A stretch of DNA of 64,000 nt from Bacillota bacterium (GCA_012839815.1 DUMQ01000136.1:19125-83124); one strand, 5' to 3'. Counted from the stretch's first letter, positions 5,346 to 50,908 are shown. The notes: generated by a model not told the origin, from the letters alone. Numbers and translations are program-made.

Positions 5346-6885
<1,540 letters not shown>

Positions 6886-7106: not shown

Positions 7107-8306
7107 TCAACAAACCGTAGGTCGAGTGTATCGCAGGTTGGAAAGGACTGCTGCGAGGAAACAGATCCCTGATGCCGTGATAAATACACCGGGCAAGCCT
7201 ATGTTTTCTCCAATGGCACCCGAAATCGTGGGACCCAAAAACATTCCCAGGGAATAGATTGATTGAAAGAACCCCATTGCCGTAGCCCGTCGATCAGGCT
7301 CCACGGCCTGTATACTCAGGCCCATGAGCACAGGGTAGACCAATCCCCTTCCGAAACCCCCTATGGCTTGGGATATATATAAAAAGGGAAGAGTCTCGAT
7401 CACAGGGATAATAATTGTGGTCAGGCCGGCAACAAGAGATCCGATGGCGGCGATCTTCCCTTCCTCCATATACCTCGCAAGCCACGTCCCACCTATGAGG
7501 GAAGCTACAGTATAGGGAACAAGGGTGACCAGTGAAAGGATGCCTAGCTCGGCCTTTGAGGCGCCAATCCGTGATGCATACAGTGGCGTGAAGCCGTAAA
7601 CGGTTGCAAAAGTAACGTATTGAGTGAGGGCCCCTAGGAAGGAGACGTAAAGGAGTCTAGTATCCTTACCCACCTGCATAAGATGAGCGATGGAGAGCGC
7701 CTCTCCTGAAACCTTGCGTTTCTCCTTTAGAGCCAGGCTACATAAAGTCCCAAATCCACCCAGCATCGCAGCCCCCAGGAAAGGCGCAAGCCATCCATAG
7801 CGTTCCGCAATGAGCCCGCCAATAAAGGTCGCGAGCGTTTGCCCAAGCGAATTGCAGAAGACTATAGTGCTCATTGCATGGGTCGCCTCGCGTGGATTAA
7901 AATAGCTCGAGAAAAGAATGGTAAATGCAACCCAGGTGGTGGCAGCTACGCCGCTGAATGCACGGAAGACAACGAGAAGGTAGGGCGTACGCGATAAGGC
8001 GAGGCCAACCGCGCTTCCGGTGGCGGCTACGAAGCCAGCGACTACGAAGGGCTTTCGAAGTCCGAGCCGATCAGACCAGATCCCTGTCGGGATACGTAGG
8101 ATTAACTGCGTAAATCCGTAGGAGCCGGTGACGATGCCGACGATGGTAAGAGAACCGCCAATAAATTGGGTATAGGATGGCAGAATCGGAACATAAAGGT
8201 AAAGGGATGCCCAAAATACTATAGTCAGAACTGCGAGGAGAATTCCGCTAGCGGCCTCCTCGCTCGAGCGTGTGTACACATCTTCTCCTGTAATGTCTGT
8301 AATCAT
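7107..8306 (-). CDS. MFS transporter.
   Basis: 399 aa with about 12 predicted TM helices and an MFS-like loop motif (LSDRLGLRKPF). Confidence 0.8.
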   Translation of the reverse strand: MITDITGEDVYTRSSEEAASGILLAVLTIVFWASLYLYVPILPSYTQFIGGSLTIVGIVTGSYGFTQLILRIPTGIWSDRLGLRKPFVVAGFVAATGSAVGLALSRTPYLLVVFRAFSGVAATTWVAFTILFSSYFNPREATHAMSTIVFCNSLGQTLATFIGGLIAERYGWLAPFLGAAMLGGFGTLCSLALKEKRKVSGEALSIAHLMQVGKDTRLLYVSFLGALTQYVTFATVYGFTPLYASRIGASKAELGILSLVTLVPYTVASLIGGTWLARYMEEGKIAAIGSLVAGLTTIIIPVIETLPFLYISQAIGGFGRGLVYPVLMGLSIQAVEPDRRATAMGFFQSIYSLGMFLGPTISGAIGENIGLPGVFITASGICFLAAVLSNLRYTRPTVC

Positions 8307-8418: not shown

Positions 8419-9324
8419 TCAAACAAAATATGGATCTAGAAGCTTCTTGGCCAGGTAAATACCGTCTAAGATATTCTCCTCGTCCTTCTCCCAGCCCCTG
8501 TCCTCGTGCTCCACGCTCACCACATAGTCATAGCCAACCTCGTAAAGCGCCCTCAGATACCCCTTCCAGTCAATATCCCCCAGCCCCGCTATCTTGTCCA
8601 TATAGAACCCGAAGCCATATATCCCTTTCCTGCCGAGCTTATCCTTGAGTATCTTCGTGTCCTTGGCGTGGGTGTGGAATATCTTCTCCTTGAAGTCGTA
8701 GACCGCCTGGATGTAGTCGATCTGCTGCCAGATGAGATGCGAGGGATCCAGGTTGAGCCCAAGGTAATCCGAGGGGATCAGCTCAAACATCCTCTCCCAT
8801 ATCTCAGGCGTGGATGCCAGGTTCGACCCGCCCGGCCACCTGTCTTCATAGAGCATGGGGCAGTTCTCTATCGCTAGCTTCACCCCGTGATCCTCGGCGA
8901 ACTTCACAAGGTCAGGGAACACCTTTTTATACTCTTCAAGGCTTTCCTCGACGCTCGCCCTCGGGTCCCTGCCCACGAAGGTGCCTACCACACCGACACC
9001 AAGCATCTGGGCCGCGACTATAACCCGTTTGAGATGTTCATGCGCCTCCCGCCTGGCATCAAGATTGGGATCGAGGTTATTGGGGTAGTACGCAAGAGAT
9101 GATATCTGCATGTTCTTCTCGGCGAACATCGCCTTGATCTCTGATGCCTTATCTGCCGTGAGGTTGACTACATCAATATGCTGGGTGCCGGCGTATCTCC
9201 TCTTCTCGTAGGACGCAGGCCAGCATGCAACCTCCAGCATCTTGAAGCCCTTGCTCGAACCCCACTCCACAAGCTCCTTCAGGCTCTTGTTGGGCAGCGC
9301 CGCGGTCAGAAAACCCAATTTCAT
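8419..9324 (-). CDS. Sugar phosphate isomerase/epimerase (xylose isomerase-like TIM barrel), copy 1.
   Basis: TIM-barrel family pattern (KLGFLTAAL.., HTHAKD, EHED). Start ATG at 9324 is preceded by a GAGGAGGG RBS and is 15 nt downstream of the upstream gene's stop. Confidence 0.8.
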   Translation of the reverse strand: MKLGFLTAALPNKSLKELVEWGSSKGFKMLEVACWPASYEKRRYAGTQHIDVVNLTADKASEIKAMFAEKNMQISSLAYYPNNLDPNLDARREAHEHLKRVIVAAQMLGVGVVGTFVGRDPRASVEESLEEYKKVFPDLVKFAEDHGVKLAIENCPMLYEDRWPGGSNLASTPEIWERMFELIPSDYLGLNLDPSHLIWQQIDYIQAVYDFKEKIFHTHAKDTKILKDKLGRKGIYGFGFYMDKIAGLGDIDWKGYLRALYEVGYDYVVSVEHEDRGWEKDEENILDGIYLAKKLLDPYFV

Positions 9325-9338
9325 CGTAGGTCCCTCCT

Positions 9339-10496
9339 CTATTTTACTTCCACCCATTTGCGCTCGCGCGCGCTCTTCAGGATGACCTCGCACATCATGA
9401 TCTCCCGGTGCCCGTCCTTGAACGTCGGGAATTTGGGGGCTATGCCCCTCTTGTAGTCCCCTGAGGCAATGTATGAATACACCTGCTTGAACATCTGCTT
9501 TGTCGTATCTGGGAACCCTTCGGTGTGCCCTCCCGGGAAGCTCACTATCTCTCTCGCCTCAGGATACATGAGCGACGGGTCCTTGATCATGACCTCGTTG
9601 TTACCATCGCGCCTCCCTATCCAGAGCTCATTGGGCTTCTCCGAATCCCATGCCAGGGCTTTCTTTGAGCCGTCGATCTCAAAGTAAATCCTGTTCTTCC
9701 GGCCGGCCGCAACCTGGTTTACGGTCATAACGCCCTTCGCCCCGCCCTCGAACTCCAGGAGCACCGTGGCGTAATCCTCGGTGTTTATGGGGACATCCTG
9801 GTAGTCCTCCGGGCTCAACATCTTACCCGCATAGGTCTCAACAGGCTTTAGGGGCTTCTTCCTGATGGGATGGAAGGTGGCGAAGTCAGCGCACACAGCC
9901 TTCACCCTGAGCCCTGAGATGAACTCTATGAGGTCAAGCCAGTGGGAGCCTATATCTGCCACTGCCCTCGACTCCCCGCTATACTCGGGCTCGAGCCGCC
10001 AGTTATAGTCGGTCTCGTAGAAGAGCCAGTCCTGGAGATAAGACCCATGGATCGCAAATATCTTCCCGATATCACCCTTTTCAACCATCGCACGGGCCTG
10101 ATGGACAAGCGGGTAGTAACGCACATTGAAGTGAATCGCGTTTACGAGCCCGGTGCGGCTGGCCACGTCAACGAGGTCCTCAGCCTCTTTAGAGTTCATG
10201 GCGAGGGGCTTTTCGCAGACCACATGCTTACCCGCCTCGAGAGCTGCTTTGCTCATGGGATAATGGAGATTGTTGGGTGTGCAGATGTGAACAGCCTCGA
10301 TATCGGGATCGGCCAGGATCTTCTGCCAATCCCCATAGGCTTTCTCGATGCCGAGCTGTTCTGCCTTGCGATCTGCGACCTCCTGGTCGATATCTGCAAT
10401 AGCAACAACATCCACAAGCCCCGTGCGCCGCAAAGCCTCAACGTGCGCAGGCCCGATAAAACCCGTACCTATGACCCCGACTGGAATTTTCTTCAT
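9339..10496 (-). CDS. Gfo/Idh/MocA-family NAD(P)-dependent oxidoreductase.
   Basis: The N-terminus [22 protein letters not shown] is a Rossmann motif. The protein is 385 aa with a C-terminal alpha/beta domain. Confidence 0.85.
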
Positions 10497-10542
10497 CCTA
10501 TCTCAACCCCCATCTAAGAATGGATCCGATAAAGGCGAATCT

Positions 10543-11550
10543 TTAACGCCCCAGGCGCTCTTTGGCCCACAGGGCAGCACCTATCATGCCTGCATCCGGG
10601 CCAAGCTCGGCTGGCACCACCTGGATTTTCTCGCCTGGGACTATATGAACTCGGGCGTGGATCACCTCTCTGATCTTGTTTATAAGCCTCTCGCCTGCCT
10701 GCGCCACACCTCCCCCGATTACGATCATCTGGGGATTGATGGTGGTCGCCGCGCTTGAGAGGGCTATTCCTATGTACTCTGCCGCCTTCTCAATAACGTC
10801 GATTGCAACCCTGTCACCTTTCCCGGCAGCCTCCGCTATGACCTTTGGGGTGACCTTATTCAAATCTCCCTCGACAAGATCCCGTATCAAAGTATCGTTC
10901 TGTTGCACTATCGCCCTGATCGCCATGGCCACCATAGCTGGCCCGCTCGCGTACGCCTCGAGGCATCCCCTGTTGCCGCACCCGCACAGGATACCGCCGG
11001 GCTCCACGATGATATGGCCGACCTCACCAGCACCACCGTCCGCTCCAAGGTAGAGGTCGCCGTTTACAACAACGCCCCCGCCTATACCCGTCCCAACTGT
11101 GGCCAGCACCAGGCTATCCACGGATTTCCCCGCGCCAAGGCGCTTCTCTGCCAGCGTGGTCGCCCTGGCATCGTTTATCACGTAGACGGGTAGGCCCAGG
11201 GCAGCCTCAAGAAGGGATTTTAGCCGGACCCCTTCCCACTTCCCGGGGAAGTTGGGCAGCATGATGCAGACGCCCGCATCCCAGTCTATGAGACCCGGAA
11301 TGCCCGTCCCAACGGCCCGCGCTTCATAGCCTCTTTCCCTAGCCTCATTCATGACCCTTCTAGCCATCCCGGCCATCGTCTCAACCACAGCCTGCGGTGG
11401 ACGGTGGACGTCGGTTGGACCTGTCGTCTTTGAAATTACCTGTCCTTCTTCAGATATTGTAACTACCTTGATGTTAGTGCCTCCAAGGTCGATGCCGATG
11501 AAGCAATCCATCCGATGCACCCCCACACGTTTATCCAGATCATCTCTCAT
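10543..11550 (-). CDS. ROK-family sugar kinase. It has no N-terminal HTH, so it is more likely a kinase than a regulator.
   Basis: Carries an ATPase motif (GIDLGGTNIKV) and the ROK zinc motif (CGCGNRGCLEAYASG). An alternative start lies at 11511 (MDCFIGIDLGG), which has a GGGGGTG RBS. Confidence 0.8.
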   Translation of the reverse strand: MRDDLDKRVGVHRMDCFIGIDLGGTNIKVVTISEEGQVISKTTGPTDVHRPPQAVVETMAGMARRVMNEARERGYEARAVGTGIPGLIDWDAGVCIMLPNFPGKWEGVRLKSLLEAALGLPVYVINDARATTLAEKRLGAGKSVDSLVLATVGTGIGGGVVVNGDLYLGADGGAGEVGHIIVEPGGILCGCGNRGCLEAYASGPAMVAMAIRAIVQQNDTLIRDLVEGDLNKVTPKVIAEAAGKGDRVAIDVIEKAAEYIGIALSSAATTINPQMIVIGGGVAQAGERLINKIREVIHARVHIVPGEKIQVVPAELGPDAGMIGAALWAKERLGR

Positions 11551-11583
11551 ACGCTATCTTTTCTGTGCCTCTTTACTGAGTTA

Positions 11584-12414
11584 TTAGGGCTGGCCGGGGT
11601 TCAATTTCCGCGTAATCTGCGCGTTATTCGCCCAAAGCTCGACAACGAATTTGCACTTATCGCCGCGAGTTATTGAGTTCGTGAGCTCAATGGGCTCACC
11701 TGTTTCCAGGTAAGCTATCCGCTCGATCGAGAAACCGCTCGTGCCGGGTTTACACTTAAGCAGCTTGGCTTCTGAGGGAGCGAGAGAGATCGCCTCATGC
11801 GTCTCCACAGCTCTATACGGCTCCAGGCCATACTCGGTCCTGAGGATGTGATAAAGAGATTGCCTCGAGAGGTCACGCTCGATAAGGCCCGGACACAGAT
11901 AATACGGGACACATGTGGTCTCAATCAACAGAGGTTCATCATTGGCCATCCTTATTCGCGTATACTTGGTCACCTTTTTGTCACTAGCGGGTAATGCCAG
12001 GTTTTTGCTGATATCCTCACTGGCCTCTGTTACTACCGCCTCGAGTATCTTTGAGCTGGGGACGAGCCCCATCCTGTACATGTCGTCCGTGAAGCTATAT
12101 AGGTGCTGCAGGTGACGCTGTATCTTGGATCGACCTATGAAGGTCCCCTTGCCCTGCCTCCTGTAGACCAAGCCTTCGCTCACAAGTGCATCAATTGCTT
12201 GCCTTACGGTCGAGCGGCTCACCTTGTATCTCTCGCAAAGGTCGCGCTCGGATGGCAGCATATCCCCTGGTTTAAATATGCCCGCCATTATCCCCCGCTT
12301 TATTATTCCTAAAAGCTGGTGATAGAGAGGCACAGCGCTCTCTTCGCTCAAGCTCCCTCCAAATTCCAGTCGCCTATCAGCCACTTTTTCCATCACTCCA
12401 AATCGATTTAGCAA
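11584..12414 (-). CDS. GntR-family (HutC subfamily, UTRA effector domain) transcriptional regulator.
   Basis: Contains the GntR HTH (LPSERDLCERYKVSRSTVRQAIDALVSEGLVYRRQGKGTFI) and a C-terminal UTRA-like domain. Confidence 0.8.
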   Translation of the reverse strand: MLNRFGVMEKVADRRLEFGGSLSEESAVPLYHQLLGIIKRGIMAGIFKPGDMLPSERDLCERYKVSRSTVRQAIDALVSEGLVYRRQGKGTFIGRSKIQRHLQHLYSFTDDMYRMGLVPSSKILEAVVTEASEDISKNLALPASDKKVTKYTRIRMANDEPLLIETTCVPYYLCPGLIERDLSRQSLYHILRTEYGLEPYRAVETHEAISLAPSEAKLLKCKPGTSGFSIERIAYLETGEPIELTNSITRGDKCKFVVELWANNAQITRKLNPGQP

Positions 12415-13316
12415 GGCATCAGCACTTCTAGATATTTTTTAGCAAAGAGTATACCTCTTTGAACCTTCTCGGTGCTGCCTTCCCAGTTTCGATCCTCGTG
12501 TTCAATGCTGATTACCCCGTCATACCCTGCGTTGACTAACGCACTGATCCATTTGCGCCAGTCTATATCGCCCAGCCCGGGAAGACGATCCACCCACCAC
12601 CGCGTGCTGCTGTAAACCCCTACACGCCCGCGAACATCCGGGAGGATCTTTGTATCCTTAGCATGAGTGTGGAAGATCCTGTCCCGATAATCCGAAGCCG
12701 CTTTCTCATAATCTATCCCCTGCCAGATAAGGTGCGAGGGATCCATATTTATTCCAAGGTTTTTGCTGGGCAGGATCTCGAAAACAGCGTCCCATATCTC
12801 AGGAGAAAAGAAAACGTTGGTTCCACCGGGCCAGGTATACATCATGGGACAGTTCTCGAACATAAGCCGTACCCCATTATCCTCAGCAAATTTGACCAGG
12901 TCGGGCCATACAACCTTCACTAACTCCAAATTCTCCGGTACAGTCTTATTAGGGTCTCGCCCGACGAAGGTTCCCACGAGGTTCACCCCGAGCAAGGAAG
13001 CTGCCCTGATGACCTTTTTCAGGTGATCGTGGTGCTCCGCTCTCCGTGCAGGATCAGGATCCAGGTTGTTGGGGTAATACGCCAGGGAGGAAATATCCAG
13101 GCCGGACTCGGAAAAGAGCATTTTGATTTCGTCAGCCATTGTGGGTGTAAGCGCCGCTACATCGATGTGCGAGGCATTGCCGTATCTTCTCTTCTCCGTC
13201 GGAACCACCGGCCAACATGCTAATTCAAGAGCTTCGAGACCGTTGTCTCGCGCCCAGCTCACTAATTCTCTCAGGCTTAATTCTGGAAGGCATGCTGTCA
13301 TCAACCCTATTTTCAT
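12408..13316 (-). CDS. Sugar phosphate isomerase/epimerase (xylose isomerase-like TIM barrel), copy 2, a paralog of 8419-9324.
   Basis: Aligns with copy 1 throughout (MKIGLMTACLP.., HTHAKD, IEHED). ATG at 13316 with an AGGAGG RBS. Confidence 0.8.
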   Translation of the reverse strand: MKIGLMTACLPELSLRELVSWARDNGLEALELACWPVVPTEKRRYGNASHIDVAALTPTMADEIKMLFSESGLDISSLAYYPNNLDPDPARRAEHHDHLKKVIRAASLLGVNLVGTFVGRDPNKTVPENLELVKVVWPDLVKFAEDNGVRLMFENCPMMYTWPGGTNVFFSPEIWDAVFEILPSKNLGINMDPSHLIWQGIDYEKAASDYRDRIFHTHAKDTKILPDVRGRVGVYSSTRWWVDRLPGLGDIDWRKWISALVNAGYDGVISIEHEDRNWEGSTEKVQRGILFAKKYLEVLMPC

Positions 13317-13471
13317 ACTTGATCCTCCTGCCTTGTATTTCATGCCTTATATTCCATTTCATGCTTACATTCCAGAGTGTAGAAATAATAGAGCGCATTC
13401 TATAATACAACAATACTATTCCCGGTCAACTAAGTTCAAGATAACCACTAAAGAAAGACGGCAAGGCGACA

Positions 13472-14254
13472 TTAGTGGGGATGTATACCGCCGCATACTG
13501 AGATAGCCTGTGCTGTCACATAGCTTGCATCGTCGCTGACCAAAAACCTTATAACCTTGGCAATATCATCAACCTGGCCAACCCTCCCCAAGGGGATCGA
13601 CTCAGCCGTTTGTTTCAACTGGTCTTCGGCAGAAACGCCGGTGCGCTCGGCAAAGCCCTCGCGGGTGTCCCTCCACATCTCAGTATCCACCGCCCCCGGG
13701 CAGACCGCGTTCACTGTTATGCCGTATTTCCCGACTTCCAGGGCCAGCGCCTGGGTGAAGCCAATCACACCAAATTTACTCGCCGAGTAACTCAACATGA
13801 AAACCACTCCGGTCAAGCCCGCTGATGACCCGAAGTTAATAATCCTTCCATATCGCCTTGGGATCATCCGCTTGCAGGCTTCCTGGCAGCAGAGGAAGGT
13901 CCCCTTTGTGTTCACGGCCATGAGCTTATCCCAGACCTCCTCTGTCTCCTCCAGAATGCCCGCCACCCTTTGAATTCCTGCAGCATTGACCAGGATGTCT
14001 ATTCTACCACCGAACCTATCATCTATCTTGGCGAACGCCTTCTTCACCTCATCCGAGTTCGAAACATCCACCTGCAAGCCGATCGCCTCTCCACCGCGTT
14101 TCACTATCTCCTCGGCTACAAGGCGCGCATTTTCACCGTTTACATCGATAACAACCAAAGCCGCTCCATCTTCTGCCAGACGCAAGGCAGCAGCCTTGCC
14201 CATTCCTCTTCCACCGCCAGTTACTACGGCTACCTGCCCTTTAAGGTTCATCAT
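13472..14254 (-). CDS. Short-chain dehydrogenase/reductase (SDR).
   Basis: The N-terminus carries TGGGRGMG. The YxxxK catalytic motif (YSASK) is present. Length is 260 aa. Confidence 0.85.
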   Translation of the reverse strand: MMNLKGQVAVVTGGGRGMGKAAALRLAEDGAALVVIDVNGENARLVAEEIVKRGGEAIGLQVDVSNSDEVKKAFAKIDDRFGGRIDILVNAAGIQRVAGILEETEEVWDKLMAVNTKGTFLCCQEACKRMIPRRYGRIINFGSSAGLTGVVFMLSYSASKFGVIGFTQALALEVGKYGITVNAVCPGAVDTEMWRDTREGFAERTGVSAEDQLKQTAESIPLGRVGQVDDIAKVIRFLVSDDASYVTAQAISVCGGIHPH

Positions 14255-14317
14255 CTAAAAAACGCCTCCCTATCTCTTTATCAAGTCAGTTAATTCCTTT
14301 ACTCGCTTACTGTGTTT

Positions 14318-15271
14318 CTAGGGTTTAATAGCTATCTTGACTACCCTTTCATCACCCTTGCGCAATAGATCAAAGGCATCTTCAATCTGGTCAAGGGAAT
14401 ACCAATGGGTAATCAACGGTTTCAAGCTGATCTTGCCGCTGGTGTAGAGCTCGAGCGCTCTCACGAAAGTACCCTTTGAATACGCCCATTTAAAACCCGT
14501 AGAAAGAATTCGGGCCCACTTTTGATGAAATGCAAAGAAGTCAAAGGAAACGGGTTGAACACACGCCCCGAAGATGCCGATAGTCCCTTGTTGCTTTACC
14601 AGCTGAGGACACGCGGCAATCGTTGAAGGGACCCCTGCGCACTCCAGGACTACATCTACACCACAGGAGCCTGTGATCTTTCCAACCTCTTCGATCACAT
14701 CCTTTTCACGGGGATCGATCGCTATGTCAGCACCGAATTGAAGCCCGAGATCCCGTTTCATCTTATTTCTCGACGTTACAATTATCCGGCCCGCACCGGC
14801 AGCCCTGGAAATTTGCGTAGCCAGCAGCCCCGAAACCCCCTGCCCGAGTATAACCACGCTATCGCCGAGCCGGACGCATTGGTCAACCAGGCCAAATACG
14901 CAGCTCGTTATCTCAAGCATCGACCCCTCTTCAAAGCTCATGTTGTCAGGGATCTTAAGGGCGTCATCCACCCGGACCTTTACGTATTCTGAAAAGGTAC
15001 CGTCGCTCCATGCCCTCAGGGCCACCCTATCGCCGGGCACGAAATCCTTGACACCCGGCCCGACGTCAGCTACGACCCCAGCTCCCTCATGACCCAAGAC
15101 ACACGGAAACGGAGTGGCACCGGGATGCAAACCTTCTATTATATGAAGATCGGTTTGTCCGCAAATGGTAGCCACTTCAATCTTCACCAGTATAGTCCCG
15201 GGTTCCAATTTGGGAATCGGGACGTTTCTGATAGCGATTTTCCCACGTTCTTCTACAAACACTTGCTTCAT
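14318..15271 (-). CDS. Zn-dependent medium-chain dehydrogenase (polyol/alcohol dehydrogenase).
   Basis: Contains CGQTDLH, GHEGAG and a GxGxxG Rossmann motif (ILGQGVSGL). Length is 317 aa. Confidence 0.85.
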   Translation of the reverse strand: MKQVFVEERGKIAIRNVPIPKLEPGTILVKIEVATICGQTDLHIIEGLHPGATPFPCVLGHEGAGVVADVGPGVKDFVPGDRVALRAWSDGTFSEYVKVRVDDALKIPDNMSFEEGSMLEITSCVFGLVDQCVRLGDSVVILGQGVSGLLATQISRAAGAGRIIVTSRNKMKRDLGLQFGADIAIDPREKDVIEEVGKITGSCGVDVVLECAGVPSTIAACPQLVKQQGTIGIFGACVQPVSFDFFAFHQKWARILSTGFKWAYSKGTFVRALELYTSGKISLKPLITHWYSLDQIEDAFDLLRKGDERVVKIAIKP

Positions 15272-15383
15272 TATCTTCGTCCGCTCCCTCGTATTAGGTA
15301 AAATATTATTAGATTCTATAACTTCCTGAGATTCCTGCAGGGCTAAATAGCAAAGTCCATATATTACTTCCCTCTTTAGTTCG

Positions 15384-16193
15384 CTACCCCTTTAGTCCGC
15401 TCATCACTACGCCCTGTATAAAGTACCGCTGGAGGAGTATGAAGAGTATCAGAATGGGGATGATCGCTATTACACATAATGCCATAAGATAGTTCCATTC
15501 CACGAACCACTCATGTTGAAACAAGGCTATTGCAACCTGAATGGTTCTTTGCGCCTCACCGGAACCAACTACCAGGGGCCAGAGCAGTTCATTCCATCTC
15601 CATAGAAACATGAATAGGCCGGTTACAGTTAAAGGAGGAAGGGATAGCGGCAAAACTACCTTCCATAATATACCGAACTCCGAGCATCCATCTATCCTCG
15701 CTGCATCCAGGAAATCATCAGGTATGGTTTTAAAATGCTGCCTCAGCAAGAATATACCAAATGGCTCCACGACGCGGGGGAGAATCATCCCGTGAAAGGT
15801 ATTTACCCAACCCAGGCTCTTAAGGAGCATAAAAAGTGGAGCAATGATGACTTCTATAGGGATTATCACCGTGCCGAGCACAAGCAGGAATAAAATAGAG
15901 TCTCCCGGGAACTTGTATTTTGCAAACCCGTAGCCTGCAAGGGATGCAACAATAAGGTATAAGACAATACATCCTACCGTATAAATTGAACTAACCAAAA
16001 GCGCCCGGATCGCATTTGAACGTTGTACCGATATAGGAAAATTTTCAAGGCTCCAGTCATGAGGTATCAAATAGGGCGGCCAGCTGAAAGTCTCTTTCAG
16101 GGGCTTTACCGCTGTGCTGAACATCCAAAGAAAGGGTAGCAGCACAAACAAGGCTAAACCAATAGCGAGTATGTAGGGAATAACTTTTTTCAT
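15384..16193 (-). CDS. ABC transporter permease (CUT1 family, MalG-like).
   Basis: 6 TM helices. The EAA loop (DAARIDGCSEFGILWKVVLP) is present. Confidence 0.85.
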   Translation of the reverse strand: MKKVIPYILAIGLALFVLLPFLWMFSTAVKPLKETFSWPPYLIPHDWSLENFPISVQRSNAIRALLVSSIYTVGCIVLYLIVASLAGYGFAKYKFPGDSILFLLVLGTVIIPIEVIIAPLFMLLKSLGWVNTFHGMILPRVVEPFGIFLLRQHFKTIPDDFLDAARIDGCSEFGILWKVVLPLSLPPLTVTGLFMFLWRWNELLWPLVVGSGEAQRTIQVAIALFQHEWFVEWNYLMALCVIAIIPILILFILLQRYFIQGVVMSGLKG

Positions 16194-16242
16194 ACGATTT
16201 CCTCCCGAATTCCGCGATACTCTTTAGGCTGGGAATTTACAA

Positions 16243-17127
16243 TCAATAGCTTACCTCACCTTTGAAGAAACGGAGCTGCAACACTGTAAAGAAGAAAACT
16301 ACGACAAATAAGATGAGAGCTACCGCGCTTCCCTGGCCCATGCGAAGCATTATAAACGCCTGCCGGTAGAAGTACATCATTAGTACCATTGTAGAAGTTC
16401 CCGGCCCGCCCATAGTCATAACATAAACCAAATCGAACATCCTGAAGGCGTAGATAACCGCCATCACGACGACAAATAAGGAGATCGGCTTTAATAGCGG
16501 CAAAGTTATGAACCGAAAGGCCGCCCATTTACTCGCTCCATCTATGGCCGCGGCCTCATAGTATTGGTCGGGGATATTTTGGAGGCCTGCTAAGAAAATA
16601 ACCATGTTCCAGCCAAATCCATACCAAACGCTAGTAAGCATCAGTGACCACGGCGCCCAAGCGGGGTTTGCCAGCCAATCCTTCGGATGTCCCCCAAAAA
16701 GGGTGATTATATAATTGATGATTCCATAATCGGTAGAATACATATATTTCCATAGCATGCCGATAGCCACCATTGATGTGAAGGCTGGGAAGAAGATAAT
16801 GCTTCGAAACAGGTTCCGTAAAGCTAAGCGCCCATTTAAAAGAATCGCCGTCAACAAAGCAAGCGTTACATTTACAGGGACCGTCACCCCGACAAACAAG
16901 AAAGTGACAAGCAGGGCGTGCCTGAAAGTCATATCGGATAAAGTAGTGGCGTAGTTTCTTAGTCCAATGAAGCGTGGCGTGCCAATGATATCCCATTCGC
17001 AAAGGCTCATTCGAATGGAGGAGATTATAGGATAGAATGTAAATATCGCCAAAAGTAGCATGGCGGGGGCGATGAAAATATATGGAACTATCCGCCTCTG
17101 TGTTTTCCAGGAAACCAGCTTTATCAT
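16243..17127 (-). CDS. ABC transporter permease (CUT1 family, MalF-like).
   Basis: 6 TM helices. The EAA-like loop (EAAAIDGASKWAAFRFITLP) is present. Confidence 0.85.
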   Translation of the reverse strand: MIKLVSWKTQRRIVPYIFIAPAMLLLAIFTFYPIISSIRMSLCEWDIIGTPRFIGLRNYATTLSDMTFRHALLVTFLFVGVTVPVNVTLALLTAILLNGRLALRNLFRSIIFFPAFTSMVAIGMLWKYMYSTDYGIINYIITLFGGHPKDWLANPAWAPWSLMLTSVWYGFGWNMVIFLAGLQNIPDQYYEAAAIDGASKWAAFRFITLPLLKPISLFVVVMAVIYAFRMFDLVYVMTMGGPGTSTMVLMMYFYRQAFIMLRMGQGSAVALILFVVVFFFTVLQLRFFKGEVSY

Positions 17128-17269
17128 GGTACGTTTTCCGTCCCTTCTTGCTTCCTACTACCAGGACCAGACCACTTTAAGGGAAATAAGACAACCGCAA
17201 ACCCGGGGTCGTGGACGTGATGCTCAAACAAACGTCCACGACCCCATGAAATTTTAGAAGTCTACTACC

Positions 17270-18541
17270 TTAATCTATTAGTCGTCTGAGTTCCTTGTCG
17301 AGCATCTTAACAGCCTGCTCGACAGTAATCTGTCCATGCATCGCAGGGCCTATAGTCTCAATAAAGACCTGCACCATACCCGCATAATTCTTTTGTTTAT
17401 ACTGGGTTACGACGATTGGAGGGATTTGTGCATACTGCTGGAGAGCTGCCTTCATTACTCCATTAATTGTAGGATCCTTATAAGATATTCGTTTCGCAAG
17501 AGGCACCGATGTTGGGATAAATCCTAATTGACAGAACCTCTCCATGACTTCATCTGTATTTAGCCACTCCAGGAATTTCGCAGCTTCCTTAGGATGCTTT
17601 GATTGAGGGGATATCACATTCAAACAACCACCCAGAGCCGTGGAAAAACCGGCTGGCCCCTTCGGGACGAATGTCGTCCCCCATTTGAATTTATCACCGA
17701 TTTGGTCCTTCAGCCACTCTGCCATCCAAGTCCCACTAAAGATTACGCCTATCTGGCCGAGCGCAAACAACTGTTCATGGCTATCCGGTTTTAGGAAGAG
17801 CGTATTTATAGGCTCCAAACCCTCATCATACCATTTCTTCTGGAGCTTTAATCCCTTTATTACCTCCGGTTTATTCACGTCCGGCTTCTTGCCGTCAGGT
17901 GTAACGAATCCACCACCCCATGTATTGATATACCAAGGTTCTCCGTTATACAGAGCCCCGGCGAAGCCGTATTTGGCAGGCGATTTGCTCTTCAGCTTTC
18001 GTCCGATGTTCTCCCAATCTTCCCATGTCCAGGCTTTATCAATTGTAGCAGGAGCTTCTATTCCAGCGGCCTTGAAGTAGTCGATATTGTAGAATACTAC
18101 ATGCGTATCCGTCATCTGCGGTACTCCATAGAACTTCCCGTCGGATTCAACGAATTGCCTGAGGTTTGGCCAGAATCTTTTACGATATTCTTTTAATAGA
18201 TGCGGCGATAAATCAAGGGCCTGTTTAGCCTTGATATACCTACCGACGTACGGAAAGGTAGTACGATAGATATCAGGTGCGTTGCCGCCAGCTATCCGCA
18301 CATCCAACGTCCTGTGGTGCTCATCCCATCCGGTCTCCGTAAGCTTGATACGGATTCCCGGGTTCTTCTTTTCAAATTCGGCGATTGCCTGGTGGAAGAA
18401 CTCTACCTCGGCAGGCCTTCCCCATGCATACCACTCTATTTCTACCGCCTTGCCCGCGGCCAGGACCATAGATATAGATGAGGAGAACATTGCTATCACG
18501 ACTAGCGATAACAGCCCGAGGCACAAAATTCTCTTTGACAT
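17270..18541 (-). CDS. ABC transporter extracellular solute-binding protein (family 1, carbohydrate).
   Basis: The internal start ATG at 18541 (MSKRILCLGLLSLVVIAMFSS) gives a signal peptide and has a GGGGAGGG RBS. The remainder is SBP_bac_1-like. Confidence 0.85.
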   Translation of the reverse strand: MSKRILCLGLLSLVVIAMFSSSISMVLAAGKAVEIEWYAWGRPAEVEFFHQAIAEFEKKNPGIRIKLTETGWDEHHRTLDVRIAGGNAPDIYRTTFPYVGRYIKAKQALDLSPHLLKEYRKRFWPNLRQFVESDGKFYGVPQMTDTHVVFYNIDYFKAAGIEAPATIDKAWTWEDWENIGRKLKSKSPAKYGFAGALYNGEPWYINTWGGGFVTPDGKKPDVNKPEVIKGLKLQKKWYDEGLEPINTLFLKPDSHEQLFALGQIGVIFSGTWMAEWLKDQIGDKFKWGTTFVPKGPAGFSTALGGCLNVISPQSKHPKEAAKFLEWLNTDEVMERFCQLGFIPTSVPLAKRISYKDPTINGVMKAALQQYAQIPPIVVTQYKQKNYAGMVQVFIETIGPAMHGQITVEQAVKMLDKELRRLID

Positions 18542-18782
18542 TCTACAGACCCTCCCCAGATAACGTTTAAAACGATCTTCATAATCTTTGAGACTGGTTG
18601 AGACTGATCCCTGCCCTACGTCCGTTGTACCATTCCGATTCCCCATACCCTTTTGACTCCGTTAGAATTCCGTAACAAACCCGCCTTACGAAAAGCTCAT
18701 CACCTCCTGATCCGTATATTTCGCCTTGCTATATTTCACCTGGTAAAGATTTTTTCTCTTCGCCTATCCGTGATGTATGTAA

Positions 18783-19841
18783 TTAATCACCTAGCCGAAC
18801 ATGATCAAAGTATTCTTTATCCGGCACGATCAAGACTTTCACTGCAGGCTCACGCTTCTCCATGAGCAGCTTAAAAGCTTCAGCCACATCGTCGATATAG
18901 AATTTATGAGTAAGAAGTGGGCGCATCTTGATCTGGCCCGATGCTACGAGATCCACTCCGCGTTGCAGGCCGGCTTTGGTGTACCCGAGCGTCGTGGCGC
19001 CCGCGGTGACTACATGGGCTCCCTTGAAGTGCAGTTCAAAGAAATCGAAGGGCACCGGATCCCAGCAAGCTCCAAAGACCGCTATCGTGCCCGGCCGCGT
19101 CCCACCCAGGTGGGGCTCACGCTTGCGGACCAGCTGCGTGCAGATGCGGATTGTATCCGGTATACCCGCACATTCCACTACCGTATCCACGCCCTTGCCA
19201 TCAGTTAGTCTCTCTATTTCCTTGACTATGTCCTGGGAGGTTGGATCCAGGGCTATATCAGCACCAAGTTTCAAAGCGAGCTCACGTTTTTCCCGCACAG
19301 GGTCTGAGACAATTATCCTCCGGGCCCCTGCTACTTTAGCGCACTGAGTCGCCATAAGCCCTGAGGACCCCTGACCGAGGATCGCTACTACGGTGCCCGG
19401 GCGCACGGTATCTTCCACCAAAATATTCACCCAGCTAAGTAGCTCTATTGGAGAAGCCTCCTCGTATGATACACTATCAGGGAGTTTTGCCAGCCACTCC
19501 GGACGGGCTTTAACATACTCGGACATGGTTTCGCTGGCGTGGATTGTACACACACGGTCACCCGGGGCAAATTCTCTGGCCGCGTATTTACCCACCTTTA
19601 CTACCTCTCCTGCTGACTCATGGCCCAGCGGAGCGGGCCAGGCATGAGCGGGGGTTCTCAGATAACCTTCTGCCCAGACATGATGGGGCGGGTGGGTTCC
19701 TTCGATTGTATGTACGTCTGTAAGGTTACAAATGCTTGCCACCTTTACTTTAATTAGAACTTCTTCATCAGTGATCTCCGGAACTTCCACATCACGGACG
19801 ACAGGAAGTCTGCCAAGACCATCAAGAAAAACTCGTTTCAC
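18783..19841 (-). CDS. Zn-dependent medium-chain dehydrogenase, second copy (threonine/sorbitol-DH-like).
   Basis: Contains GHESAG and a GQGSSGL Rossmann motif. GTG start at 19841 is preceded by AAGGAGG. Confidence 0.8.
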   Translation of the reverse strand: MKRVFLDGLGRLPVVRDVEVPEITDEEVLIKVKVASICNLTDVHTIEGTHPPHHVWAEGYLRTPAHAWPAPLGHESAGEVVKVGKYAAREFAPGDRVCTIHASETMSEYVKARPEWLAKLPDSVSYEEASPIELLSWVNILVEDTVRPGTVVAILGQGSSGLMATQCAKVAGARRIIVSDPVREKRELALKLGADIALDPTSQDIVKEIERLTDGKGVDTVVECAGIPDTIRICTQLVRKREPHLGGTRPGTIAVFGACWDPVPFDFFELHFKGAHVVTAGATTLGYTKAGLQRGVDLVASGQIKMRPLLTHKFYIDDVAEAFKLLMEKREPAVKVLIVPDKEYFDHVRLGD

Positions 19842-19919
19842 TGAATATCCTCCTTTGCTTCTCCTCTGCACTGTGGCCCCACAATTCGGGCTCCGGTATA
19901 CTCTGCCTCTTTTCAATTC

Positions 19920-20621
19920 TTAAATTTCTCTTAATGTCCCGTTCTTCTCTCTGCTTATTGCCTCCTCCATAATCGCCTCCGTTGCTGTCGCGCCGAACCT
20001 GGTACAGCCGGCGGCTCTCACCTGGAGTGCCGCATCGAGCGTCCTCACCCCTCCCGCGGCCTTGATCTTCACCTTTGCACTCACCGAGCGCCTCATAAGC
20101 TCTAAATCCGGTATCGTAGCCCCGCTCGTCCCAAAACCTGTCGAGGTCTTCACATAGTCGGCTCCTGCCCGCTCAGAGATCTCGCAGGCTTTCACCTTCA
20201 ACTCGTCCGTTAAGTAGCAGTTCTCAAGGATAACCTTGACTATAACCCCTCTGGAGTGCGCCATGTCAACGATCGCCTTGATCTCTCTCTCAACGTAGTC
20301 ATAATCCCGCGAAAGCAGCTTGCCGATGTTGAGCACCATATCAAGCTCAACTGCGCCGTTGTTTATCGCCTCCTCGGCCTCGAAGAGCTTGGTTGCGGTG
20401 GTATGCGCCCCGTGGGGGAAACCGATGACCGTGGTCACGAGGACCTCACTACCCTCGAGAAGCTCCTTTGCGCGGGCCACATCGCTCGGCCTCACACAGA
20501 CTGAGGCAACGTTATACTTCCTCGCAAGCTCGCAACCCTTTACGATATCGTCATCCGTGAGATTGGGTCGCAAAAGTGAGTGATCAATCATCTTGGCTAT
20601 ATCCCTGCTGGTAATGCTCAT
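19920..20621 (-). CDS. deoC: Deoxyribose-phosphate aldolase (DeoC family).
   Basis: Motifs VIGFPHG, KVILE, VKTSTGF and KAAGGVRT are present. The ATG at 20621 has an AAGGGGATGG RBS. The ORF as called to 20762 carries an implausible N-terminal extension. Confidence 0.85.
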   Translation of the reverse strand: MSITSRDIAKMIDHSLLRPNLTDDDIVKGCELARKYNVASVCVRPSDVARAKELLEGSEVLVTTVIGFPHGAHTTATKLFEAEEAINNGAVELDMVLNIGKLLSRDYDYVEREIKAIVDMAHSRGVIVKVILENCYLTDELKVKACEISERAGADYVKTSTGFGTSGATIPDLELMRRSVSAKVKIKAAGGVRTLDAALQVRAAGCTRFGATATEAIMEEAISREKNGTLREI

Positions 20622-21431
20622 AAATCCATCCCCTTTAGTTGCCGAGGGATGCACCCTCATATCATAACCTGATATGAAGATCACATCGGTCGACTTATGT
20701 GAATATATAATGATTGTTATACCGGTACGTACATCATGGTAACTACGATATAAAGATACCACTGATACATATCCTAATCAACATAGGACAAGTATGGTCT
20801 ACCGGCGCTAGAGATGACTTAGGACTGGTATAGACAAAATCCTGAGCTATATCCGTATATTCCTGGGGATGCATCCTGTATAACTCCTTAGTGTACTAAA
20901 CTAAAAAAATTAACCACTTCTACGAGGCCGAAGGTAATCGCAGCAGTCTCAGCTTATGGGCAACATAACTTTGTAGCGCGCATAAGGTGCAGGATAAGAC
21001 AGTGGGTAGGTAAGGCGGGTATGCTCCAACATAAAGGTGCGAGGTGGTTCGCAATAGTCATCGTCAGCTTAAGGTAGGTACTAAGTTTAGCGTTATCAAT
21101 GACGTCAGGTCGCTTTCTGCAAGGCTTGCAGGAAGGACTTTATCCCGCCCAACAGTATCCTCCCTGAGTATAATGGGATGGTCATAACGAGGGGATTACA
21201 GGAATTGGCCTGCCTTTTCCCCTGTTTTCCTCCCATAGGATCGCACAGTGACAGTGACTTAAGGAGGCCGAAATTAGCAGGGATGAGTTGGTCAAGAGAG
21301 GGGTTCGATCTTTTGCAATAAAGGGGGTAAAAGTATAAATCTTCTAGCGGGACTTTAGTATGATTCTCACCAAATTTGCACCATCTTAGCGAAGAATGAA
21401 GGCCCGGAAACCCCGGACCCCTAGAAATACT

Positions 21432-21507
<76 letters not shown>

Positions 21508-21525
21508 ACACACATGAAAAAATTA

Positions 21526-21602
21526 TGGTAGCGGCGACTGGATTCGAACCAGTGACGCCACGGGTATGAACCGTGTGCTCTGACCAGCTGAGCTACGCCG
21601 CC
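21526..21602 (-). tRNA. tRNA-Met (CAT), elongator type.
   Basis: The anticodon arm CACGG-TTCATAC-CCGTG matches Bacillus elongator tRNA-Met. TTCGAAT T-loop and an encoded CCA. Confidence 0.8.
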
Positions 21603-21629
21603 ATTTATACAGCTTATAATAATGAAACA

Positions 21630-21704
<75 letters not shown>

Positions 21705-22166
21705 GTCGTTTCCGCTGGCCGCATCCACCAGCTACATATTTATTATAGCAAAAAAAACTCTCCCGTCAAGGGGTTATCCGGGTGTTTTCCCGAGCCACTA
21801 ACGTCAAATCAACTCCGCTAACGGCTATTCAACCGCGAAAAAGTAGCATGCCGCCAGACTCTATCACTAAGTATAATCCGGGGCCACGCATAGCGCAGGT
21901 CAGCTTAGGTAACAAATATATATTCAAGTATAGATTCAGGCAATAACATTAAGCCAATAGTCAATAAAGCCAATAGCATTAAGGCATCAAGGGCGGGATC
22001 TCCGAGGATGGCGACGGAGCTCACTCTTGCGGGTCCGCCTCGCTCTTTAATAGGCCCCAACTGTGCGGCAAACTGTGCGGGTCCTAACCGCCAATCACGC
22101 CCTGAACATGAACAGGCGGCCGCAAACACGAAGACCGCGAAATCTCAAGGCAATAAGCTCACGGCC

Positions 22167-22969: not shown

Positions 22970-23962
22970 TCAGAAGTTAAACTTATCTATATTGCTCTTA
23001 TCGAAGACGAAAGGAGGGCCGAGGACAAGCATCTTATCCTTCTCCCTGTATTCAACCTTGCCGATCTTGGGGACGTTATTAACGGGTGCGAAGCCCTTGC
23101 CTTCGACAAGCTGCTTTGCTGCCCAGACCGTAAGGTAACCGAGATCTACAGGGTTCCAGAGCAGGAACCTTTTTACGGTCCCGTCTTTGACGTACTCCCT
23201 CATCAGGGATGGCGTTGATATGCCGGTCGCGACGACCTTTCCTGACTTGCCGGCCTGGCGCACAGCCTCCGCCACGCCAGGAGCGGAAGTGCTGCACTGG
23301 CCGATTATCCCCTTAATCTTGGGGAACGCCGTGAGGATATCCAGGGTCACGCTAATCGCAAGCTGTATGTCCTCCTCGGCGTAGCGAATCGTCACCAGCT
23401 TCATCTTGGGGTACTTGGCCAGCCGCTGCTGCTCATACATTATCCAGGTATTCAGATTCCACGCCGTAGGGCCGCATGAGACGATGGCAAACTCGCCCTC
23501 ATATCCCATATCCTCGGCGAGCACATCCATCATGCTGTAGCCTATCTGGTCCTGGAGGGCCTGGTTTACGAAGACCTGGCGCACGGAGTCCGGCGCGTCT
23601 GTATCAGAAGTCATAACCACGATTCCCTTATCCCTGGCCTTTTTCAGGATTGGAGCGATTGATGTGGGGTCGTTCGGGGCAACGGCGATGGCGTCGACAC
23701 CCCTTGTGATGAGGTTATCGATGATCTCCACTTGTTTGGTCGGGTCCGCAGTGACGGGGCCTGTATAGATGAATTCAACACCCAGGTCCTTGGCGGCTTG
23801 TTTCCCGCCTTCCTCCATGGCGTTAAAATACGGGATCCCGACGAGCTTGGGCACAAATGCTATCTTGATGGGCTTGGAGCCAGCCGTCGCCGTCCCGAAG
23901 ACGAGCACGAGAGACAACACGGCCAGCAGGAGCGTCAGGAGAATCTTCCGGCGGAACAACAT
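22970..23962 (-). CDS. Periplasmic sugar-binding protein (PBP type I; ribose/AI-2/rhamnose-binding family), an orphan with no adjacent permease or ATPase.
   Basis: 330 aa with a signal peptide (MLFRRKILLTLLLAVLSLVLVFGTATA) and a Peripla_BP-like core. Confidence 0.85.
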   Translation of the reverse strand: MLFRRKILLTLLLAVLSLVLVFGTATAGSKPIKIAFVPKLVGIPYFNAMEEGGKQAAKDLGVEFIYTGPVTADPTKQVEIIDNLITRGVDAIAVAPNDPTSIAPILKKARDKGIVVMTSDTDAPDSVRQVFVNQALQDQIGYSMMDVLAEDMGYEGEFAIVSCGPTAWNLNTWIMYEQQRLAKYPKMKLVTIRYAEEDIQLAISVTLDILTAFPKIKGIIGQCSTSAPGVAEAVRQAGKSGKVVATGISTPSLMREYVKDGTVKRFLLWNPVDLGYLTVWAAKQLVEGKGFAPVNNVPKIGKVEYREKDKMLVLGPPFVFDKSNIDKFNF

Positions 23963-38948: not shown

Positions 38949-38990
38949 TAAGATTATAGCTGTGACTTTAAGATTATAGCTGTGACTCGA
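38949..38990 (+). repeat. Perfect 21-bp tandem duplication (gtaagattatagctgtgact x2), 40 bp upstream of the prs start.
   Basis: Read directly from the sequence. Confidence 0.6.
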
Positions 38991-39032
38991 GGTCTTATTC
39001 CATTCTTTAACACTCTTCAAGGGGGCATTCCC

Positions 39033-50113: not shown

Positions 50114-50908
50114 GAGATTGCTACCCTCCGGAACTCAAATGAGATTCTGGGATCAAACGAGATTCTGGAAAAGGGATCAGGGGGCAGGTGGCCTCACGCT
50201 GAGTAAATATTGTGGCTTCAGGTCTAGCTGGTTTTCCCAGAACGATTCTCCTGTGCGTTACCGCCAGGCGGTTCCCCTTTATGATCGTTTCCCCGTGTCG
50301 CCATCGGGGATGCTAGATTACCACTTAGTCCACACTGTAATCCCCAGCGTGCCCCACTTACCGCGGACAGCCTAGGAGTTTTCCTCACCAGCACGCTCCA
50401 TCCTCTAGCCTCTTTTGCAGCCAGGGTTTCAGGCGACGGGATGTCGCCATCCCACTCTGACCACTCAAGGCAGGCTACGCTGCACCCAGCACGATATGTA
50501 CGGCCCCAAGGAACCCATACGCTCGCACCGATGTGCAGGTTAACCCCAAGCCGTAGTTACGCGCACGCACCTCAACGCGATGGGCGGGCGCCGGCGCGAT
50601 CACCACGCACTTGGGCCTCCACGGAGACGGGGTCAACGCCTACATGCCATTGTAGATCGCCCCATCTCCTTAACCCCCAGCACCAACCCCCGACTGGGCG
50701 TCGGCAGCCGGCACCAGGGACTTCATCGATGTGCCCTTGACGGATTTTTAGGCCCGTCCTCAAAGATGGGCATGCCGACTAGGATACTGCGCCACCTGTC
50801 GTTAGCATCTCAGATTATAGCATAAACCCTCTCGCACTTCAAGTTTACCGGAGCCGTGGCTGAACCATCTAACCCTGACCAGCCTTGGGAGGGCGCAAGC
50901 AAGAGGGA

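Follow-up and report, generated by a model that had tools for sequence, protein, structure and literature searches.

Why should a gene for deoxyribose-phosphate aldolase (DERA) stand among genes for keto-sugar chemistry? The question is raised by a 12 kb locus (positions 8419-20621) in a 64,000 nt stretch of DNA from a Bacillota bacterium (hereafter the window), which is identical to a public contig from a biogas-fermenter metagenome. In this locus deoC accompanies genes for a Gfo/Idh/MocA dehydrogenase (Gfo), two paralogous xylose-isomerase-like TIM barrels (TIM1 and TIM2) and a ROK-family sugar kinase (ROK). An initial annotation, made from the sequence alone, had proposed an uncharacterised pathway built on the Gfo/Idh/MocA and TIM-barrel pair, which our analysis supports; DeoC, which it had counted into the locus, is on comparative sequence grounds the most unexpected conserved partner. 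Our preferred reading, to which we assign a probability of about 40%, is that the module ends in DERA by way of a 2-deoxy-aldose phosphate produced by keto-sugar chemistry, a proposal that covers a class of schemes.

Conservation of the module was assessed in 80 species-representative (GTDB) loci, which were fetched with an alignment of TIM1 relatives and onto which the window proteins were mapped. The tightest unit is the Gfo-TIM pair, whose genes are neighbours in 56 of 82 loci. In 17 of the 80 GTDB species loci, and in further metagenome loci, the pair is accompanied by DeoC and a sugar kinase; in the 17 species loci DeoC lies within about 6 kb and is 56-73% identical to the window DeoC. 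Overall, DeoC is linked to Gfo-TIM in 24 loci, from Atribacterota, Anaerolineae and Bacillota and, with a single example each, from Thermomicrobiales, Gaiellaceae and Verrucomicrobiota; mostly these are anaerobic lineages. TIM1 is the ortholog of the TIM gene in this cross-phylum module (69-75% identical to the Atribacterota homologues), and TIM2 branches as sister to the TIM1/Atribacterota clade. A literature search returned no paper on a cluster of DeoC, Gfo/Idh/MocA, TIM and ROK.

The gene order differs between lineages. It is deoC-OYE-gntR-rok-gfo-TIM in Atribacterota (L003, L007-9, L046) and OYE-deoC-gntR-rok-gfo-TIM in L098, both with a GntR gene as in the window. The Anaerolineae order is ROK-regulator, CUT2 ABC, gfo2-deoC-gfo-TIM-rok, with a 4 bp overlap of deoC and gfo in L087 and L014. 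In L006, deoC-TIM-gfo is followed by a kinase of the hexokinase family instead of ROK; metY and metX lie a few kilobases from this module, so that the backbone appears to have held this position for long. On one plasmid of ZRK35, a cultured Chloroflexota strain (L100, CP069395.1, 1-12824), there are two DeoC + Gfo + TIM + ROK sets, the first orthologous to the window genes and the second composed of distant paralogues (Gfo 28%, TIM 29%, ROK 29%) in the order CUT2 ABC-deoC-gfo-TIM-gntR/rok. Because the same four families have been reassembled in different orders and from different paralogues, DERA appears to be part of the pathway and not a passenger.

An extra redox enzyme nearly always accompanies the module and its family differs between lineages. 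In Atribacterota, L098 and L099 it is a 705-residue BaiCD/FadH-like Fe-S flavoenzyme, which adjoins deoC and scores 383-385 bits, below the BaiCD equivalog cut-off of 825; in Anaerolineae it is a second, IolG-like Gfo, and in the window it is represented by dehydrogenases of the medium-chain (MDR) and short-chain (SDR) families.

Several DeoC-linked loci have features of their own. The gfo of the deoC-gfo-TIM unit of L088 (Chloroflexota, 8675-9769) is split into two ORFs of 197 and 161 residues, as a frameshift or pseudogene. Upstream of deoC-gfo-TIM-rok in two Anaerolinea genomes (L087, 2058-7747; L014, 4524-7830) lie divergent genes, which in L087 encode, by Pfam, an aldehyde:ferredoxin oxidoreductase, a split transketolase, LarA and an IclR regulator; only two ORFs of L014 were matched to those of L087 by sequence clustering. 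These enzymes, seen in two related genomes only, could serve to metabolise acetaldehyde together with a tetrose or triose phosphate. Proteins resembling URO-D/MtaA, mutually 25% identical, are encoded immediately upstream of deoC in L099 (8194-9366) and L003 (2962-4071), and another lies near a relative of the window solute-binding protein in L094. A different DERA-ending cluster is found on plasmid pA of Peribacillus sp. R9-11 (L101, 3005-10681), where a SorC-type regulator, a GatD-like MDR, an FGGY pentulose-type kinase and a CUT2 ABC system are followed by deoC; it is another uncharacterised pairing of MDR and DERA, comparable to deoC-ADH1 in the window.

All genes named in the initial annotation were recovered by domain searches, on the minus strand, and are transcribed in the order deoC, ADH1, SBP, perm, perm, ADH2, SDR, TIM2, gntR, rok, gfo, TIM1, MFS. 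Its gene starts, taken from the longest ORFs, were partly too long: gene calls on the identical public contig place those of DeoC and TIM1 later, and the solute-binding protein (SBP) probably starts at about 18541, giving 423 residues (NCBI gene call). The features of the locus are the following.

19920-20621, minus strand: deoC, deoxyribose-phosphate aldolase (class I, DERA), backbone gene, furthest upstream in the locus
18783-19841, minus strand: ADH1, Zn-type MDR (Pfam ADH_N + ADH_zinc_N), first gene of the variable cassette
17270-18646, minus strand: CUT1-type SBP (Pfam SBP_bac_1/8)
16243-17127, minus strand: ABC permease 1 (BPD_transp_1)
15384-16193, minus strand: ABC permease 2 (BPD_transp_1)
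14318-15271, minus strand: ADH2, second MDR dehydrogenase, ADH1 paralogue
13472-14254, minus strand: SDR oxidoreductase, last cassette gene as conserved in L095
13402-13429, minus strand: promoter-like site TTGACC-16-TATTAT (consensus scan only, 10/12 positions)
12408-13316, minus strand: TIM2, xylose-isomerase-like metal TIM barrel (PF01261), TIM1 paralogue
11584-12393, minus strand: GntR/UTRA (HutC-type) regulator, from domain search
10543-11511, minus strand: ROK-family sugar kinase, glucokinase-like, without a DNA-binding domain
9339-10496, minus strand: Gfo/Idh/MocA NAD-dependent sugar dehydrogenase, related to levoglucosan dehydrogenase
8419-9324, minus strand: TIM1, xylose-isomerase-like metal TIM barrel (PF01261)

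The locus had been described as one unit. Its gene content compared with that of relatives indicates instead that it is a composite of a backbone (deoC … gntR-rok-gfo-TIM1), shared with L099 and other phyla, and a variable slot, which in the window holds ADH1-SBP-perm-perm-ADH2-SDR, plus TIM2. The closest relative found, L099 (GCA_013178125.1; DeoC 85%, GntR 88% and ROK 92% identical), has the order deoC, BaiCD/FadH-like flavoenzyme, a different CUT1 system with two MalK-type ATPases, gntR-rok, its ene-reductase occupying exactly the ADH1 position of the window. The ADH1-to-SDR cassette is absent from L099, and TIM2 has no counterpart in L095 or in the portion of L099 examined. In L095 the same six genes from ADH1 to SDR stand alone in the same order at 56-65% identity (ADH1 65%, ADH2 64%, SDR 63%), followed by a gene for an Fe-ADH and with no TIM barrel; window permease 1 is 57-63% identical to the permeases of L093 and L095. 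The segment from ADH1 to SDR, probably with TIM2, is probably a swapped-in cassette that is also found on its own. The window offers a clean natural example of slot swapping, in which an ene-reductase with one ABC system and an MDR/SDR cassette with another are carried by the same backbone.

ADH1 and ADH2 (43% identical to each other) are Zn-type MDRs that lack the structural-zinc loop and retain the Cys and GHE ligands. Their likeness to IolM, threonine dehydrogenase and GatD is weak, the best NCBIfam match of ADH1 being IolM at 152 bits (cut-off 450). The SBP is rare (11 relatives at E<1e-30), and a metagenome scan with it found no close relative; relatives at 52% and 43% identity adjoin GH4/GH1 glycosidase genes. 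Assignment of a substrate from SBP homology was uninformative, as the PDB matches are weak and of mixed specificity (binders of cycloalternan, raffinose-family sugars, maltose and other sugars). The CUT2 SBP of the Anaerolineae loci is closest, at low scores, to ribose-, xylitol- and threitol-binding proteins. Domain searches found no sugar-importer-type ABC ATPase in the window, where the sole ABC ATPase is of the ABC-2 exporter type (34591-35718, paired with an ABC-2 membrane protein), in agreement with the earlier description of a CUT1 importer without its own ATPase.

DeoC is the only protein of the locus that scores above an NCBIfam equivalog cut-off (TIGR00126, 245 bits; cut-off 117). 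It retains the KTSTGF and KAAGGVR motifs (Schiff-base Lys and phosphate binding) and the Asp of ELDMV, and judged by these motifs it is a canonical DERA. Its family is highly conserved (67-85% identity to the DERAs of Ruminiclostridium, Thermatribacter, Clostridia, Atribacterota and many metagenome-assembled genomes), and no fusion of DeoC with Gfo, TIM or ROK domains was found among its best 120 relatives. Gfo matches the levoglucosan dehydrogenase (LGDH) model NF052479 over its full length at 214 bits (cut-off 650); its PDB matches are 4gqa, 4h3v and 6a3f, of which 6a3f (LGDH; E 3e-49, 171 bits) is the best match to a characterised protein. The kinase falls just under the cut-off of the ROK-glucokinase model TIGR00744 (240 bits; cut-off 260), has the glucokinases 3vgk, 2qm1 and 3vov as its best PDB matches, and carries intact ExGH and zinc CxCGxxGC motifs and no HTH.

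TIM1 and TIM2 are 57% identical; their family is large (over 7,500 relatives at E<1e-20), and its Glu, Asp, His and Glu positions are strictly conserved; TIM2 retains all of the family-invariant residues. The sequence profile of TIM1 and its AF2 model (pLDDT 84.5) were compared with solved structures, the latter using Foldseek. The nearest, in order, are SCO6571 (function unknown), the Agrobacterium 2-hydroxy-3-keto-glucal hydratase AtHYD, and then IolI, Art22 and ketose 3-epimerases. AtHYD, the second-best structural match (Foldseek E 9e-16, TMq 0.72), gives a weak profile match (E 1e-7) and 19% identity. The nearest characterised relatives of the backbone enzymes are accordingly levoglucosan dehydrogenase for Gfo, 2-hydroxy-3-keto-glucal hydratase for TIM and the ROK glucokinases, none of them at family cut-offs.

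How such enzymes might deliver a substrate to DERA can be set out as a sequence of steps. The sugar would be imported with an ATPase encoded elsewhere, and Gfo would oxidise a ring hydroxyl with NAD+, the MDR and SDR enzymes assisting in the window. The metal-dependent TIM barrel would then carry out an E1cB elimination (β-dehydration) beside the new ketone, in an IolE-like or lyase/hydratase-like manner. The resulting enone or diketone would be reduced by the ene-reductase or second Gfo in relatives and by MDR/SDR in the window, and the first ketone would be reduced back to a hydroxyl. ROK (or hexokinase) would phosphorylate the resulting 2-deoxy-aldose, and DERA would cleave the product to acetaldehyde and glyceraldehyde-3-phosphate (erythrose-4-phosphate if the sugar is a hexose), the whole locus being controlled by the GntR/UTRA repressor. 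Reductive 2-deoxygenation of this kind would erase the stereochemistry at C2-C4.

We infer this chemistry from the gene families and from analogy. IolG and IolE oxidise and then β-dehydrate to a deoxy-diketone, BaiA, BaiE and BaiCD carry out oxidation, dehydration and ene-reduction, and Gfo-family 3-ketoreductases act in TDP-2-deoxysugar synthesis. Bile-acid 7-dehydroxylation (BaiA, BaiE, BaiCD/BaiH) is a likeness of logic only (oxidise, dehydrate, ene-reduce, re-reduce): its substrates are steroids, it has no sugar enzymes, and the BaiCD-like enzyme is absent from the window, which has MDR/SDR instead. A scheme ending in DERA would account for the changing family of the extra reductase, for transporters and kinases of sugar type and for the anaerobe bias of the DeoC-linked loci; as these come mostly from anaerobic lineages, the reductive step would be a useful electron sink. 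That an aldose is reductively 2-deoxygenated by oxidation, TIM-catalysed β-dehydration and ene-/keto-reduction, then phosphorylated and split by DERA, in a fermentation route not described before, is nevertheless the more doubtful part of the proposal.

A number of points weigh against a DERA-ending module. We know of no precedent for a pathway of free-sugar 2-deoxygenation, and DERA action on a six-carbon substrate is unproven. For Gfo, TIM and ROK alike, the characterised proteins most closely related point to C3-keto/C1-C2 chemistry that would end in glucose and need no DERA. TIM proteins 45% identical to TIM1 occur with glucokinase and without DeoC in Dgp-like C-glycoside and PTS-glucoside clusters, and most Gfo-TIM pairs of soil Actinomycetota and Chloroflexota lack DeoC (neighbour clustering in these soil clades was unusable because of antisense ORFs in the high-GC DNA). 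Finally, DeoC could be a housekeeping enzyme of nucleoside catabolism, given its ordinary, conserved family and a pyrimidine-nucleoside phosphorylase gene 17 kb away. The latter lies at 37363-38664 (minus strand), with a ribose-phosphate pyrophosphokinase gene at 38982-39977 (plus strand); the genome thus also has an ordinary route feeding DERA.

The principal rival is a glucose-yielding 3-keto route, as in levoglucosan, 3-keto-glycoside or C-glycoside salvage, with DeoC merely a co-regulated neighbour; we regard it as a serious possibility, if on balance an unlikely one. Gfo would oxidise C3 of a glycoside or anhydro-sugar, for example 1,5-anhydroglucitol; a second oxidation or a lyase would give 2-hydroxy-3-keto-glucal, on which TIM1 and TIM2 would act by elimination and hydration to yield 3-keto-glucose; and Gfo or MDR/SDR would reduce this to glucose, which ROK would convert to glucose-6-phosphate. 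The BaiCD-like enzyme of relatives could act here as a desaturase on a 3-keto-anhydroalditol. This route is the best fit to the nearest characterised relatives (LGDH for Gfo, AtHYD for TIM1, glucokinases for ROK), and it suits the substitution of hexokinase for ROK in L006 and the GH4/GH1 genes beside SBP relatives. Its chemistry of C3 oxidation, 1,2-elimination, hydration of 2-hydroxy-3-keto-glucal and reduction to glucose is documented (PMC7676230, PMC10628242, bioRxiv 10.1101/2024.03.25.586180), and the two TIM barrels of the window recall LgdB1/LgdB2 and AtOGE/AtHYD.

Each of the systems of this kind differs from the window in detail. The levoglucosan pathway LgdA/LgdB1/LgdB2/LgdC (Bacillus smithii, Paenarthrobacter; PMC7676230, PMC10066097) shares a Gfo (that of the window being closest to LGDH), two TIM barrels, an ABC importer and the logic of oxidation, elimination, hydration and reduction. 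However, the window Gfo, at 214 bits, lies below the 650 bits of NF052479 that define LgdA, the second Gfo, LgdC, has no counterpart in a locus with a single Gfo, and the window adds DERA, ROK, GntR, two MDRs and an SDR. The closely paralogous TIM1 and TIM2 contrast with LgdB1 and LgdB2, which by their description have no marked similarity (PMC7676230), and this counts against equating them with the unrelated lyase/hydratase pairs of known systems. The 3-keto-glycoside pathway of Agrobacterium tumefaciens (AtOGE eliminase, AtHYD hydratase, Gfo reductase; PMC10628242), with which the AL/BT2156-2160 clusters of gut Bacteroidota are grouped (bioRxiv 10.1101/2024.03.25.586180), provides the nearest characterised structure to TIM1 and shares the Gfo pairing; the low TIM1-AtHYD identity, the lack in the window of a periplasmic FAD/TAT dehydrogenase and of DUF1080, and the linkage of DERA and a kinase set it apart. 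Relative to the C-glycoside deglycosidase DgpA/DgpB/DgpC (PMC8563793), the window is without a DgpB/C-type TIM barrel and the DUF6379 subunit, and its Gfo is distant from DgpA (98 bits).

Two plasmid contexts without DeoC bear on the glucose-yielding route. A megaplasmid of Enterococcus raffinosus has the order AraC-MFS-Gfo-(Dgp-like TIM)-DUF6379-Gfo-TIM-ROK, in which the Dgp-like TIM matches PDB entry 9m3b ('P581a DgpC1') at 435 bits and the penultimate gene encodes the 45%-identical TIM, which with its Gfo and ROK is probably a sugar-salvage arm. On a Niallia plasmid the neighbours of a TIM-family member are a PTS-glucose transporter, another TIM barrel unrelated to it, a Gfo and a protein annotated 'ROK glucokinase'. 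By analogy, both would fit the published scheme and favour this route. What it leaves unexplained is the linkage of DeoC, which is kept in at least five phyla despite rearrangements, is translationally coupled to gfo and was re-recruited in ZRK35. Assignment of the locus to a complete iol, Lgd or Dgp pathway was rejected on NCBIfam scores below cut-offs and on missing genes; the initial annotation had likewise found no complete match to known routes, and the iol, Dgp, Lgd and Ycj equivalog scores all lie far below cut-off. Its remark that there is no glycoside hydrolase and no iolB, iolC or iolD was confirmed by domain searches of the locus and its flanks, and the glycoside or polyol that it suggested as a substrate class is possible.

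DeoC would be explained directly if the module served an oxidative, non-hydrolytic cleavage of 2-deoxyribosides such as 2'-deoxynucleosides, which we consider improbable. Gfo would oxidise the 3'-OH, the base would be lost by β-elimination, TIM would hydrate the furanoid enone, and a reductase would give 2-deoxyribose for ROK and then DERA. Every conserved gene would be used, in chemistry already shown for the same families on glucosides, and for Atribacterota and Anaerolineae DNA is an important nutrient. Against this, the transporters are of sugar type (CUT1 here, Peripla_BP_4 CUT2 near ribose and polyol binders elsewhere) instead of the Bmp type that binds nucleosides, none of the linked genes handles nucleobases, the kinases are hexose-kinase-like, the ene-reductase has no role, and the window has a canonical nucleoside phosphorylase.

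Slightly less probable again is an epimerisation as in E. coli YcjQRS, in which dehydrogenases would oxidise and re-reduce the substrate and the TIM barrels epimerise the keto intermediate, so that a rare sugar, glycoside or polyol becomes a hexose for ROK. The ycjNOPQRS system (D-guloside to D-glucoside) consists of the same families, CUT1 ABC (without a working ATPase), MDR, TIM barrel and Gfo; ketose 3-epimerases and IolI are among the structural neighbours of TIM1; and two MDRs with an SDR (and the Fe-ADH of L095) resemble polyol oxidation. It also has phosphorylases, of which the window locus has none. Orthology was rejected using BLASTP: YcjQ and ADH1 are 30% identical over a partial length of 219 residues, YcjS and Gfo 30% over 207 residues of the N-terminal half only, and YcjR gave no match. 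Epimerisation would moreover leave DeoC and the ene-reductase of relatives unexplained.

A variant inositol or cyclitol pathway of the IolG/IolE/IolM type (in Thermotoga, IolM/IolO), which likewise begins with Gfo oxidation and a PF01261 β-dehydration, is highly improbable, since its matches (TIM1 and TIM2 to IolE and IolO, ADH1 and ADH2 to IolM, Gfo to IolG, and the Anaerolineae Gfo2 and ZRK35 Gfo_A to IolG at 168-188 bits) are all far below equivalog cut-offs (window Gfo to IolG 129 bits, cut-off 355; TIM family to IolE 30-50 bits, cut-off 290), no IolB, IolC, IolD, IolJ or IolN was found in the locus or flanks, and the downstream enzymes, a glucokinase-like, hexose-type kinase and DERA, have no role on cyclitols. 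Five other ideas were dropped because no DERA-type substrate results from them: ring opening of 1,5-anhydroglucitol-6-phosphate, an ascopyrone route from anhydrofructose, retro-Claisen cleavage of 3-keto-glucose, dehydration of pentitols via pentuloses, and AI-2-like processing.

Keto-sugar systems of Gfo and TIM barrels are emerging as a general means for the non-hydrolytic opening of recalcitrant sugars (levoglucosan, C-, S- and O-glycosides), and a version consistently wired to DERA has not been described previously. Its carriers, Atribacterota, Anaerolineae and digester Bacillota, are abundant and mostly uncultured anaerobes of sediments and biogas reactors whose substrates are poorly known. 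If DERA is terminal, as in our preferred reading, the module would be a new way for sugars to enter central metabolism, in the form of acetaldehyde and a sugar phosphate, and a new source of biocatalysts that form 2-deoxy sugars; if 2-deoxygenation proves true, DERA would have a catabolic role outside nucleoside breakdown in these three groups. If DeoC is merely co-regulated, the module would still be a widespread, testable candidate system by which anaerobes could use anhydro-sugars or glycosides. What merits experiment is the DERA coupling, and strain ZRK35 provides a tractable system for the pathway.

All genes between a tRNA cluster and a metY-metX-metW operon under the control of a SAM riboswitch are on the minus strand. 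The features that flank the locus are the following.

21432-21705: tRNA-Lys/Met/Met
7107-8306, minus strand: MFS transporter (PF07690), 112 nt after TIM1
6953-6925, minus strand: strong promoter-like site before metY (consensus scan)
6769-6879, minus strand: SAM riboswitch (S-box, 92 bits), upstream of metY-metX-metW

The metY promoter-like site and the riboswitch are the downstream boundary of the sugar locus; membership of the MFS gene in the pathway is uncertain. Within the locus, the promoter-like site at 13402-13429 sits in the 155 nt gap between SDR and TIM2. It may, as a consensus match only, mark the start of a TIM2-gntR-rok-gfo-TIM1 transcription unit, and together with the 14 nt spacing of TIM2 and gntR it suggests that TIM2 is co-transcribed with these genes; gfo and TIM1 are also 14 nt apart.

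The initial annotation had seen lower GC at 12.4-20.7 kb and adjacency to the tRNA cluster, and had taken both as compatible with an acquired island. GC content at third codon positions (GC3) is indeed low from TIM2 to ADH1 (0.50-0.61; window mean 0.65), lowest in the transporter genes (0.50-0.56, with a minimum of 0.50 in permease 2), and is 0.70-0.71 in TIM1 and Gfo. Values just as low (0.54-0.60) are found for metX, metY and the MFS gene, however, so that composition alone is weak evidence for an island. The tRNA genes are where they had been placed, but no integrase and no att-like direct repeat of a tRNA was found in the window. The locus is probably not a single island: its backbone is shared with L099 and other phyla, and only the part of the island idea that concerns the cassette, which has low GC3 and is absent from L099, survives.

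Between deoC and the tRNA cluster, some 810 nt (20622-21431) contain no ORF of at least 100 residues and are partly AT-rich; nothing in Rfam matches them at gathering score, they have no att-like repeat, and they may hold the promoter or regulatory region of deoC. Beyond the tRNA genes, an orphan sugar-binding protein of the Peripla_BP_4 (CUT2) type is encoded beside mutS at 22970-23962 (minus strand), with no adjacent permease or ATPase. Further away, a full-length OLE RNA (449 bits) was found at 50172-50811 (minus strand), between a polyprenyl synthetase gene (50909-51808) and an ORF of 200 residues. With dxs nearby (47527-49494), this is the usual OLE neighbourhood, and it is consistent with an anaerobic Bacillota host.

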